Shown one piece after another: positions 2,466-4,699 of a DNA stretch of 4,917 nt; the first letter of the stretch is position 1; the number at the start of each line of letters is the position of its first letter. A program made the position numbers and the translations under genes. Origin of the DNA: a virus (taxonomy: Duplodnaviria > Heunggongvirae > Uroviricota > Caudoviricetes); the IMG/VR virus record IMGVR_UViG_2671180814_000001. One strand, given 5' to 3'. The notes under the pieces are model-generated. The model searched no databases. It saw only the letters and a program-made list of their open reading frames with translations, and had not been told where the DNA came from.

Positions 2466-2578
2466 GTTATTTCCCCACTTACTGGCTTGGGTTGTTTCGT
2501 GGTACTGCCGTTAACTGGTGGCCCAGAATAAATTCCGGTTTCATTATCAAGCCCACCCGTAAATGGGCTTTGTAATGG

Positions 2579-2836
2579 CTACTTCGCTTTTGCTTCCGCT
2601 CGCTTACGCCGGCGCTCTTCTTTCCTCTCGGCTTTTGCCATGTCCATGAATGCCTGCATGATCGAGTTCCGCATCATGTAGCTAACAAAGTGATGATTGA
2701 CACAGCCGTTGAGGCGCAGCTGCTCGCCAAACTCATCCACCGAGGCCAATGCTTCCATCATGCCCTTCTCGCCTTTCATGAACTCTGAGAAGTCGCGCCC
2801 CGCTCTGGAGGCGCATTCAATAACATGATCACTCAT
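2579..2836 (-). CDS. Hypothetical 85-aa protein with an acidic N-terminal half and a strongly basic/charged C-terminal tail; downstream partner of the KilA-N-like gene
   Basis: ATG at 2834-2836 overlaps the stop of the upstream ORF (ATGA). C-terminal tail AKAERKEERRRKRAEAKAK. A hairpin (AAGCCCA/TGGGCTT, 2549-2570) lies 9 nt past the stop. I do not recognise the family. Confidence 0.5.
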   Translation of the reverse strand: MSDHVIECASRAGRDFSEFMKGEKGMMEALASVDEFGEQLRLNGCVNHHFVSYMMRNSIMQAFMDMAKAERKEERRRKRAEAKAK

Positions 2837-3330
2837 CCCGGAAGCCCGGGGATCGTAATCTGCAGCTGGTTAGCCAGGGAGTTAATCTCAGCGACCAACA
2901 CTGGCTTCGTATAGCGCCATGCTGCCAGCCCTTGTCCGCAGAAGCTCGCCATGTCTTTCTTCTGGTCAAATTCATGACATTTCATGTTGAGCTGCGCACT
3001 TAAGCTGTTGCGATGCTGAAGTTCTCCGGTGAAGTAGTCATCGAGGACTTTATAGGCCGCGTACTTGAACCCGGGGTTTAACCAAGCCGCATAATCGTAA
3101 GCAACAAACTTCCCGCCATATGTTCCACCGTGTACACCGCGCTCAGTAAAAACCACAGATTCGTGGTTTTTCTCCAGCTCGGCTAAGAACTCTTTGGTCT
3201 GCTTGTTTCGCAGGTAGTGGTAAGGCGATTCAGATTCACTTTTACCACTGGCTTTCCACATATCAGTGAGGCAGATCATGCCATCTTCACCGATACGAAT
3301 TGGTTGATTGAAGAGGGTTAATGATTTCAT
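2833..3330 (-). CDS. KilA-N-domain-like protein (165 aa), function unknown
   Basis: The N-terminal ~110 aa fit the KilA-N pattern as I recall it: LFNQPIRIGEDGMICLTDMWKASGK ... EFLAEL ... GGTYGGKFVAYDYAAWLNPGFKYAAYKVL. The C-terminal ~55 aa are unassigned. ATG at 3328-3330; a weak GAG/AGG SD lies upstream. Preceded by the tandem terminators that follow the complete lysis cassette. Confidence 0.6.
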   Translation of the reverse strand: MKSLTLFNQPIRIGEDGMICLTDMWKASGKSESESPYHYLRNKQTKEFLAELEKNHESVVFTERGVHGGTYGGKFVAYDYAAWLNPGFKYAAYKVLDDYFTGELQHRNSLSAQLNMKCHEFDQKKDMASFCGQGLAAWRYTKPVLVAEINSLANQLQITIPGLPG

Positions 3331-3445: not shown

Positions 3446-3470
3446 AAAAAACATGCGTTGCGGTACGCAT
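3446..3470 (-). terminator. Candidate intrinsic terminator (stem ATGCGT/ACGCAT, 6-nt loop, U6 tail on the minus strand)
   Basis: Perfect 6-bp inverted repeat at 3453-3458 and 3465-3470. On the plus strand it is preceded by AAAAAA at 3446-3451, which is the U-run on the minus-strand RNA. Confidence 0.4.
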
Positions 3471-3477
3471 TTATTGC

Positions 3478-3500
3478 AAAAAGCCCCGCATCGCGAGGCT
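3478..3500 (-). terminator. Rho-independent terminator directly downstream of Rz (same module as 1502-1525)
   Basis: Minus-strand RNA AGCCUCGC-GAU-GCGGGGCU followed by UUUUU. It lies about 30 nt after the Rz stop and is near-identical in sequence to the element at 1502-1525. Confidence 0.5.
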
Positions 3501-3531
3501 CATTAAATGGACTTTGTGATTTGCAAAAAAA

Positions 3532-3990
3532 TTATTTCAGGCATTGCGTCCTGATGTATTCCTGCAGGTAGTTAACCTGCGCGGTTATCTTGTCGATTCC
3601 ACTTCGGAGACGGTAATAATTGAGTTCAGCATCTGCTGTAAGTCCTGGGCTTTCTCCATCGCCCATGCCGCTGGCTCCGGTCGTTGACTTTGCACAGGTG
3701 GCGGCGACTTGCAGGCGCTTACGCCCAGCAGAAACATCAGCACGGAGACTTTCGATAGTCGCGTTAGCATCAGCAAGCTCCTTTATGTATCTTGCGTCGA
3801 GTTCTGCTACATCACGTTGACGCTTCCGCATGTCAGCGATGGTGGCGTTCGCCTTCTCCAGTTCACTGGCCTTGTTATCGCGCTGCTCTTTGTAGGCGAT
3901 TGCGTTATCACGGTAATGATTAACAGCCAATGACAGGCAGACGATGATGCAGATAACCAGAGCGGAGATAATCGCGGTTACTCTGCTCAT
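3532..3990 (-). CDS. Rz: Rz i-spanin (second variant; C-terminal half diverged from the copy at 1699-2166)
   Basis: [35 protein letters not shown]-terminal TM helix followed by a charged coiled-coil-like region. GGGGGA SD before ATG 3988-3990. The ATG overlaps the endolysin stop (ATGA). Rz1 is embedded. Confidence 0.85.
3585..3770 (-). CDS. Rz1: Rz1 o-spanin lipoprotein, embedded in the +1 frame of Rz (second variant)
   Basis: From ATG 3768-3770: [20 protein letters not shown] (signal peptide with lipobox Cys) followed by the proline-rich [16 protein letters not shown]. Entirely inside Rz. Confidence 0.75.
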
Positions 3991-4484
3991 TGTTTCCCCC
4001 ACAAACAGACTTCACGCTCAATCTCACGGCGAGTCATCAGTCCTTTCCATTGATTACCGCCAGCGTATGTCCAGCGCCGTAGCTGATCACATGCGCCTTT
4101 AATATCACCCTGGTTTATTTTGCGAAGAAGCGTCGATGTTCTGAAATTGCCAGCGCCCACGTTGTAAACGAACGAGTAAAGAGCGCCGCGCGTTGTTTCC
4201 GGTATATCGACTTTGATGTACGGGTTAATTTGTCTGGCGACAGTGGCAAGGTCTTTATTCAGGAGAGCTTTGCACTCTGCTTCGGTATACGTTTTACCGG
4301 GAATGATGTCTTTTCCTGTATGCCCGTAACATACAGTCCATACACCAACTATGTCTTTGTAAGGATTATGTCTCACACCTTCCAGACCATCGTTACCACC
4401 TGGGCCAGTGATTAACACAGATGCTATAGCAATAGCCCCGCCACCAATAGCAGCAGCAACAGCTTTTCGTAATGATGGAGGCAT
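3987..4484 (-). CDS. R: SAR endolysin (phage-21 R / DLP12 RrrD-type lysozyme with an N-terminal signal-anchor-release domain)
   Basis: 165 aa. [28 protein letters not shown] is a Gly/Ala-rich weakly hydrophobic SAR segment. It is followed by a T4-lysozyme-like catalytic region (LEGV...YKD...VWT). Near-identical to the phage 21 R protein as recalled. The start overlaps the holin stop (TAATG). Confidence 0.9.
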
Positions 4485-4699
4485 TATCCACCTCTCGCAG
4501 CCTTGCGCTTATCTTCTTTAATCTTGAAATAAAGGTTTGTCAGGTACGTCAGCAGGCCAAATACCAGGCTACCCAGCACTCCAATTGCCGCCCACTGTGA
4601 GGGCGTGACTTTATCTAGCAGCTGTAAAAACCAGTACCCGGCACTACCTGCTGAGGTGCCATAGGCGACACCCGTTGTTAACTTATCCATGGATTTCAT
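4484..4699 (-). CDS. S: Pinholin, S21 family (class II holin, 71 aa) with a dual-start motif
   Basis: [71 protein letters not shown]: two TM segments and a charged C-terminus. Met1-Lys-Ser-Met4 is the antiholin/holin dual start. A strong SD (GAGGTGGGG) precedes the ATG. Near-identical to phage 21 S / EssD as recalled. Confidence 0.9.

Follow-up and report, generated by a model that had tools for sequence, protein, structure and literature searches.

Organization of the Late Region

The window analyzed here, i.e., the whole stretch of 4,917 nucleotides taken from the IMG/VR virus record IMGVR_UViG_2671180814_000001, is the late region of a lambdoid enterobacterial prophage and is organized on the minus strand. 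On this strand, a lysis cassette composed of a P21-type holin gene S (4484–4699), the lysozyme gene R (3987–4484) and Rz (3532–4002), with Rz1 embedded at 3585–3776, stands upstream of two tightly packed genes. The first one (2833–3330, minus strand) encodes a 165-aa protein of the HK620 HkbK type which has Pfam matches to KilA-N (E 1.3e-15) and ORF11CD3 (E 2.4e-13) and a PHROG match to phrog_129, described as ‘transcriptional regulator’. This protein belongs to the so-called Bro network, a term coming from Pfam-based work (PMC10111431). The second one (2579–2836, minus strand, stop codon at 2579–2581 included) has an ATG start and encodes an 85-aa protein of the HkbL/PHROG 875 family, the open reading frame and its translation being exactly those of the original prediction. 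Both genes share an ATGA start/stop overlap (2833–2836, minus strand), which can be read directly from the sequence and represents a translational coupling signal.

Several hairpins are found around these genes. Between Rz and the KilA-N gene, a terminator scan and RNA folding identified two hairpins on the minus strand, each followed by a U-run (3481–3501 and 3453–3470), while a 9-bp GC-rich hairpin devoid of U-run (2549–2570, minus strand) begins 9 nt past the stop codon of the 85-aa gene. Further along the window are located a run of 184 N (2282–2465), the 3′ end of a second lysozyme gene together with a second Rz/Rz1 (1699–2281), a Nu1-like DUF1441 small terminase gene (389–883) and the start of a gene for a gpA-type large terminase (24–389).

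Regarding the second lysis cassette, the last ~38 codons of its lysozyme gene lie at 2166–2281 and its Rz/Rz1 genes at 1699–2178 and 1740–1946, and the window contains a 300-nt direct repeat (1937–2236 vs 3761–4060) with 86% identity. In the close relatives PhiR49_1 and E. coli CFSAN064035, DUF1398 and YlcI genes are found past the 85-aa gene and the second lysis cassette is absent. The N-run and the second cassette are either a scaffold or masking artefact or the recombination scar of two lambdoid prophages. Of note, both Rz copies are trailed by a near-identical GC-rich hairpin and U-run (AAAAAGCCCCGC..GCGAGGCT; window 3453–3501 and 1480–1520), which suggests a conserved terminator-like element ending the lysis cassette.

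Family Identity and Coding Status

The 85-aa protein belongs to PHROG 875, annotated “unknown function” (E 1.3e-53, residues 1–85 on profile positions 1–85 of 85), and is the same protein as HK620 HkbL and HK97p61. Copies with 98–100% identity are present in HK620, Stx phages, PhiR49_1 and ECP1, and the family extends to HK022, mEp234/235/X1/X2, the Stx phages 1717 and 2851 and some Salmonella and Klebsiella phages. Among 5426 complete E. coli genomes, 427 carry the gene, always annotated as “hypothetical protein”; a full-length small gene was found in 421 of these complete genomes and a full-length partner gene in 395, i.e., a similar prevalence. The gene is common, and its first record, as a hypothetical protein, dates back to the HK620 genome. 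The HkbL family is nevertheless very narrow: a profile search against 1.84 billion cluster representatives retrieved 21 proteins, nearly all from Enterobacterales and 83–90 aa in length. The core motifs of the family, GRDFSEF..GEK and F.EQL...GC.NHHF, are present in the window copy, with GRDFS.F..GEK and F..QL...GC.N being invariant in our family alignment (A1). As a side observation, a 4-kb contig labelled as a ‘Candidatus Nanosynbacter’ metagenome-assembled genome (L006, JARKOR010000234.1) contains a 100% identical small gene along with E. coli-type Rz and R genes; a binning error, by which a contig from an enterobacterial prophage received this label, is almost certain.

It had been proposed that the protein could not be placed in any known family, and this holds true for Pfam, NCBIfam, PADLOC and the PDB, PHROG 875 with its ‘unknown function’ label being the only match. 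Indeed, the sole Pfam match was YqzE, with 13.8 bits for a cut-off of 27, NCBIfam and the PADLOC models gave no match, and a profile search of the PDB sequences with alignment A1 returned nothing at E values up to 10. Using a core-only alignment (A3), no new architectures emerged among the 120 matches listed. Similarly, a full-text literature search retrieved no paper on hkbL as a phage gene and nothing relevant on HK97 gp73 KilA or on PhiR49/ECOR13.

The pattern of nucleotide substitutions, which had been named in advance as a possible refutation of the gene, establishes on the contrary that it is under purifying selection. The dN/dS ratio is 0.05, 0.08 and 0.11 when the 85-aa gene is compared to the diverged homologues L009, L010 and L004, respectively, and its median is 0.10 over the 211 pairs with dS > 0.1, in a set of 90 copies from phage and genome collections representing 31 distinct nucleotide sequences and 15 proteins. 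As synonymous changes are many and non-synonymous ones few, the 85-aa ORF is protein-coding.

Predicted Fold and Charge Pattern

An AlphaFold2 model, computed with a 28-sequence alignment, reached a pLDDT of 92.4 and predicts three helices (H3–20, H26–42 and H48–84). The three-helix-bundle core corresponds to residues 1–65 (2642–2836, minus strand), i.e., to the first two helices and the first part of H48–84, and the third helix extends beyond this bundle, with the last 20 residues (66–85; 2582–2641, minus strand) as its free end. The core fold matches generic helical bundles involved in protein interactions (MIT, TPR-like), in a non-specific manner. Fold and profile matches disclosed no resemblance of the core to HTH DNA binders nor to any known nucleic-acid-binding fold, and no RHH, HTH, AbrB or Phd/YefM antitoxin fold was found in the protein by Pfam or fold matching. 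A candidate CCHH metal site (Cys8, Cys45, His48 and His49) was also considered and rejected, because P0122 and P0132 have Ser or Ala at the position of Cys8, and P0135 retains neither Cys45 nor His48.

The original prediction described a segregated charge distribution, with an acidic N-terminal half and a highly charged, probably helical tail. The latter is well supported, the model making the tail the exposed end of the long helix H48–84. Its sequence, MAKAERKEERRRKRAEAKAK, is rich in Arg, Lys and Glu and contains 10 K/R and 4 D/E (net charge +6, pI ~11); in the window copy, residues 1–40 have a net charge of -5 and residues 1–65 a pI of ~5.2. Across 93 family members, it turns out that the basic tail is conserved and the acidic N-terminal half is not. 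Indeed, the median net charge is +5 for the tail and 0 for the core. Almost every intact tail lies between +3 and +8, lower values being confined to a few members with frameshifted or variant ends, and the core ranges from -3 to +2, the window copy being the most acidic. The tail sequence turns over between clades, with charge alone being kept, and inside the E. coli clade it is under purifying selection (dN/dS 0.04 vs L009).

At its 3′ end, the gene contains a (GCAAAA)n repeat (window 2582–2600) encoding (AK)n, and the tail varies in length. Copies differ by whole repeat units, their C-termini extending from AKAK to AKAKAKAKAKAKVK, i.e., from (AK)2 to (AK)6-VK, for proteins of 85–95 aa (loci L045, L059 and L073). 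In one variant of 139 aa present on 38 contigs (P0002), the reading frame continues past the (GCAAAA)n repeat into a long unrelated C-terminal extension.

Partner Genes and Genomic Contexts

The tight coupling to a KilA-N-like gene, which had been taken as the hint of a functional partnership, is not only confirmed but broader than first seen, since it concerns 91 of 94 fetched loci and four partner architectures. In these 91 loci, the partner ORF ends at most 12 nt from the start codon of the small gene, and in the ~90 loci sampled the partner is always a Bro-network (antirepressor-like) protein. The KilA-N + ORF11CD3 architecture is found in the window, HK620, Stx phages, Klebsiella phage RAH1 and Enterobacter (L102), and KilA-N + P63C in HK97, mEp234 and L009–L011. 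In L098–L100, the partner consists of Phage_pRha alone and in L101 of pRha + ANT, these Rha partners having no KilA-N domain. Both genes meet at an ATGA, overlap by 8 nt or stand 2 nt apart, the ATGA overlap or a 2–8 nt spacing occurring in all partner classes. Two apparent exceptions (L014 and L022) still possess the partner gene, in a frameshifted form.

These frameshifts were observed in IMG/VR prophage contigs, where the KilA-N/ORF11CD3 gene is disrupted (L014 2957–3452; L022 4506–4955) next to an intact small gene, and could reflect a sequencing error or the decay of the partner alone. A distinct situation is encountered in the Actinobacillus phage vB_Apl-pPE4 (PP818812.1, 19509–20068), whose KilA-N/ORF11CD3 gene shares 96% identity with the E. 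coli copy and is followed by a small gene reduced to its first 22 codons. This phage was reported from Actinobacillus pleuropneumoniae and such an identity is unexpected across bacterial families, which suggests a recent transfer or else a host or assembly problem.

The pair occupies three kinds of positions: between Rz and the terminase genes, in phages with quite different packaging modules; inside tail-gene clusters; and at the end of P22-immI-like Arc/Mnt/antirepressor operons, immediately before the tailspike gene. In the collected loci, the flanking lysis genes are 32% to 100% identical while the pair is 96–100% identical; being more uniform than its flanks, the pair behaves as a mobile mosaic module. 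In Klebsiella phage RAH1 (L004, 3007–3755) and Enterobacter asburiae (L102, 3442–4264), it is co-oriented with the tail cluster and inserted in the interval between the major tail and tape-measure genes or in the one between the tape-measure and Dit genes, a behaviour reminiscent of a two-gene moron.

The association has nevertheless limits. Partner-type genes exist without the small gene, as illustrated by phiEt88 hkbK, D3 orf11 and P22 rha, all of them in the same slot. (P22 orf80 was considered as an analogue and rejected: it corresponds to HK620 hkbM (DUF2560) and does not adjoin rha.) Moreover, the small genes of the window and mEp234 are identical from nucleotide 19 to the stop codon (240 nt) and differ only in codons 2–6 (5′ ends compared: window 2819–2836 vs L005 3001–3018), which places a mosaic joint at the extreme 5′ end of the small gene. 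The genes upstream of them, by contrast, encode proteins whose C-terminal domains are unrelated (ORF11CD3 vs P63C) and whose KilA-N domains are only ~23% identical. The small protein thus does not co-vary with partner type, and since one allele stands behind unrelated partners, any contact would have to be with something generic, or there would be no direct contact and both proteins would act in parallel on a common target. Finally, in the HK97 record (L003, NC_002167, 3001–3261), codon 54 of the small gene is followed by an additional G, leading to a frameshifted 77-aa product lacking the basic tail; the partner gene is intact and the small gene otherwise 100% identical to that of mEp234. Either HK97, a viable laboratory phage, truly carries this mutation or the record contains an old sequencing error.

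Transcription of the Gene Pair

A scan of the window detected no sigma-70-like promoter on the minus strand upstream of the pair, and Rfam no RNA family in the window. The two hairpins located between Rz and the KilA-N gene are terminator-like sites, which Q-antiterminated late transcription would have to cross. With such hairpins and no promoter of its own, the pair is most simply seen as depending on the Q antiterminator for late transcription, and in the immI-like loci it would be transcribed from the antirepressor promoter. The 9-bp hairpin downstream of the small gene (-23.2 kcal/mol, z -2.9 by RNA folding) falls within the DNA segment travelling with both genes, the segment shared with HK620 and Stx phages reaching ~2529–2542.

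Distant Homologues Containing a T5orf172 Domain

Among the 1.84 billion representatives, only two distant homologues were retrieved, P0132 (164 aa) and P0135 (179 aa), both members of PHROG 4284. Homology to the core covers the N-terminal ~60 residues of each (phrog_875 E 2.7e-9 and 4.5e-7; A1 profile E 1e-4 and 7e-4, respectively), and a T5orf172/MUG113 domain takes the place of the basic helix. T5orf172 is a domain of the GIY-YIG superfamily which co-occurs with Bro-N and KilA-N and is a predicted DNA binder (PMC8096241). That a DNA-directed domain stands where the window protein has its basic helix is the strongest argument, though an indirect one, for a contact between the tail and nucleic acids. 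One of the two fusion genes adjoins a KilA-N + P63C gene in a tail cluster, beside an Arc/Arc/Bro-N immI-like region; the other one (L093) lies between lysis genes and the small terminase gene and has no Bro-network neighbour. The AlphaFold model of P0132 (pLDDT 48) was too poor for comparison.

Possible Functions of the 85-aa Protein

We put at roughly 0.4 the probability that the 85-aa protein, made of a docking bundle and a polyanion-binding helix, is expressed late and assists antirepressor-like proteins as an accessory partner. Its synthesis would be kept in step with that of the upstream Bro-network protein, of the KilA-N or Rha type, by translational coupling. The three-helix bundle would then dock onto another protein, either the partner itself or a target which both have in common, and the exposed Arg/Lys-rich helix would confer a non-specific affinity for polyanions, most likely DNA or RNA. 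In this scheme, partner binding, nucleic-acid binding by the tail and late timing are the parts that we infer; a nucleic-acid-binding role of the tail would fit both its conserved charge and its replacement by T5orf172 in the distant homologues. The adjacency of the two genes, the pair moving as a unit, the coupled junctions, the Rosetta-stone type fusion, the conservation of the tail, the fold and the prevalence argue for this tentative proposal. On the other side, there is no co-variation with partner type, some partner-type genes lack the small gene, the core has a neutral to acidic charge and matched no known nucleic-acid-binding fold, the L093 fusion has no Bro-network neighbour and the fold matches are non-specific.

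Several of these counter-arguments would be accounted for if the gene were an independent accessory (‘moron’-type) gene, whose product would work by itself against a target of the host or of a competitor, be it for host takeover, anti-defence or exclusion, and which merely shares a transcription unit and a module boundary with its neighbour. The mosaic joint at codons 2–6, which makes the small gene and the partner separable modules, the same allele behind unrelated partners, the location in classical accessory slots of late operons and the T5orf172 fusion homologue devoid of a Bro-network neighbour all point in this direction. However, with four architectures and three positions, the small gene is always immediately downstream, its start codon overlapping the partner's stop codon or lying close to it, which is hard to explain without a functional link, and no PADLOC defence model was matched, so that we regard this possibility as somewhat unlikely. 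A further proposal, which we hold to be unlikely, is that the 85-aa protein is the stand-alone form of an unrecognised domain of the Bro/KilA-N/Rha network, i.e., a universal small co-factor whose bundle would sit on a shared target while the basic helix, or T5orf172 in the fusions, would hold the nucleic acid.

As P1 KilA is toxic and Rha is toxic in hosts lacking IHF (integration host factor), the small protein might also restrain a harmful KilA-N/Rha partner until late infection, in the manner of a toxin-antitoxin pair. It is indeed small and encoded downstream by a translationally coupled gene, the partner families are reputed to be toxic, and in L014 and L022 the KilA-N gene is frameshifted beside an intact small gene. 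However, close partner-type genes lack the small gene (phiEt88, D3, P22), one allele serves unrelated partner domains, unlike specific antitoxins, and the HK97 record combines a frameshifted small gene with an intact partner in a viable phage. In addition, no RHH, HTH or AbrB type domain was found, and the gene order and the late-operon setting are atypical for addiction modules. An antitoxin-like modulator was among the roles initially suggested for the protein; we found no positive evidence for it, and the existence of partners alone, the sharing of one allele between unrelated partners and the HK97 frameshift weakly disfavour this role, which we deem improbable.

It is even more doubtful that the tail (EERRRKRAEAKAK) is an arginine-rich-motif peptide binding a specific RNA hairpin or ribosomal RNA. 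Lambda and P22 N peptides bind boxB, and we take the tail to resemble residues 5–17 of lambda N (QTRRRERRAEKQA), as a lead only; its composition and helicity, with RKEERRRKR inside the predicted helix H48–84, are those expected for such a motif. However, the window yielded neither an Rfam element nor a boxB-like target, the motif lies at the C-terminus with a distal part of variable length owing to (AK)n slippage, and a low-complexity similarity of this kind is expected by chance. A clade-specific tail sequence in which charge is kept suggests instead a non-specific electrostatic binding, and the idea that the tail is typical of ribosome-binding peptides, which had accompanied the first description of the protein, gained no support. 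Finally, a spurious ORF or a non-coding element has practically no chance of being the explanation, as nothing speaks for it beyond the small size and the low-complexity tail, and it is refuted by dN/dS ratios of 0.05–0.11 along with the full-length PHROG match, the confident fold prediction and the lack of Rfam match.

Significance and Comparison with Known Systems

Few accessory proteins of temperate phages, Stx phages included, are as widespread as those of the Bro network (KilA-N, Bro-N, Rha, ANT), and few of these have a known activity. A conserved small gene always found directly behind such proteins whatever their architecture or position offers a cheap genetic and biochemical entry point. 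What is new here is the invariable linkage to four Bro-network architectures, the T5orf172 fusion and the confident three-helix model, as well as the distinction between conserved features (tail charge and core motifs) and the non-conserved acidic N-terminal half. The practical gain consists of an annotation hint and a testable partnership, and not of a new mechanism. Were the 85-aa protein a stand-alone domain of the network, it would provide the first experimental handle on the role of the late-operon KilA-N and Rha proteins of lambdoid phages, which are very common and poorly understood.

Among known systems, HK620 HkbL is 98–99% identical to the window copy and stands at the same place after the KilA-N gene, and the two differ in no essential respect. 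At position 4, the window copy has His4 rather than Arg4, and its tail, (AK)2, is the shortest. PHROG 4284 (P0132 and P0135) shares with the 85-aa family a homologous core and the accessory slots of late operons but differs by T5orf172 in place of the basic tail and by the absence of conservation of Cys8. Like the tail of the 85-aa protein, the motif of lambda N and P22 N is a short Arg-rich alpha-helix with interspersed Glu and Ala. It is however N-terminal in the N proteins and C-terminal in the 85-aa protein, in which only charge is conserved, for which Rfam gave no candidate RNA hairpin in the window and which, unlike them, has no NusA- or RNA-polymerase-binding regions. With type II antitoxins, the protein has in common its small size and its translational coupling to a possibly toxic neighbour, but it differs from them by the absence of a DNA-binding antitoxin fold and of partner-specific co-variation, and by a partner which occurs alone. 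Regarding the Bro network itself (KilA-N, Bro-N, Rha, ANT, ORF11CD3 and P63C, with P22 Ant and Rha), the 85-aa protein contains none of its recognised Pfam domains and is a separate polypeptide, yet it is tied to this network by its neighbourhood, by its operons and by domain fusion.
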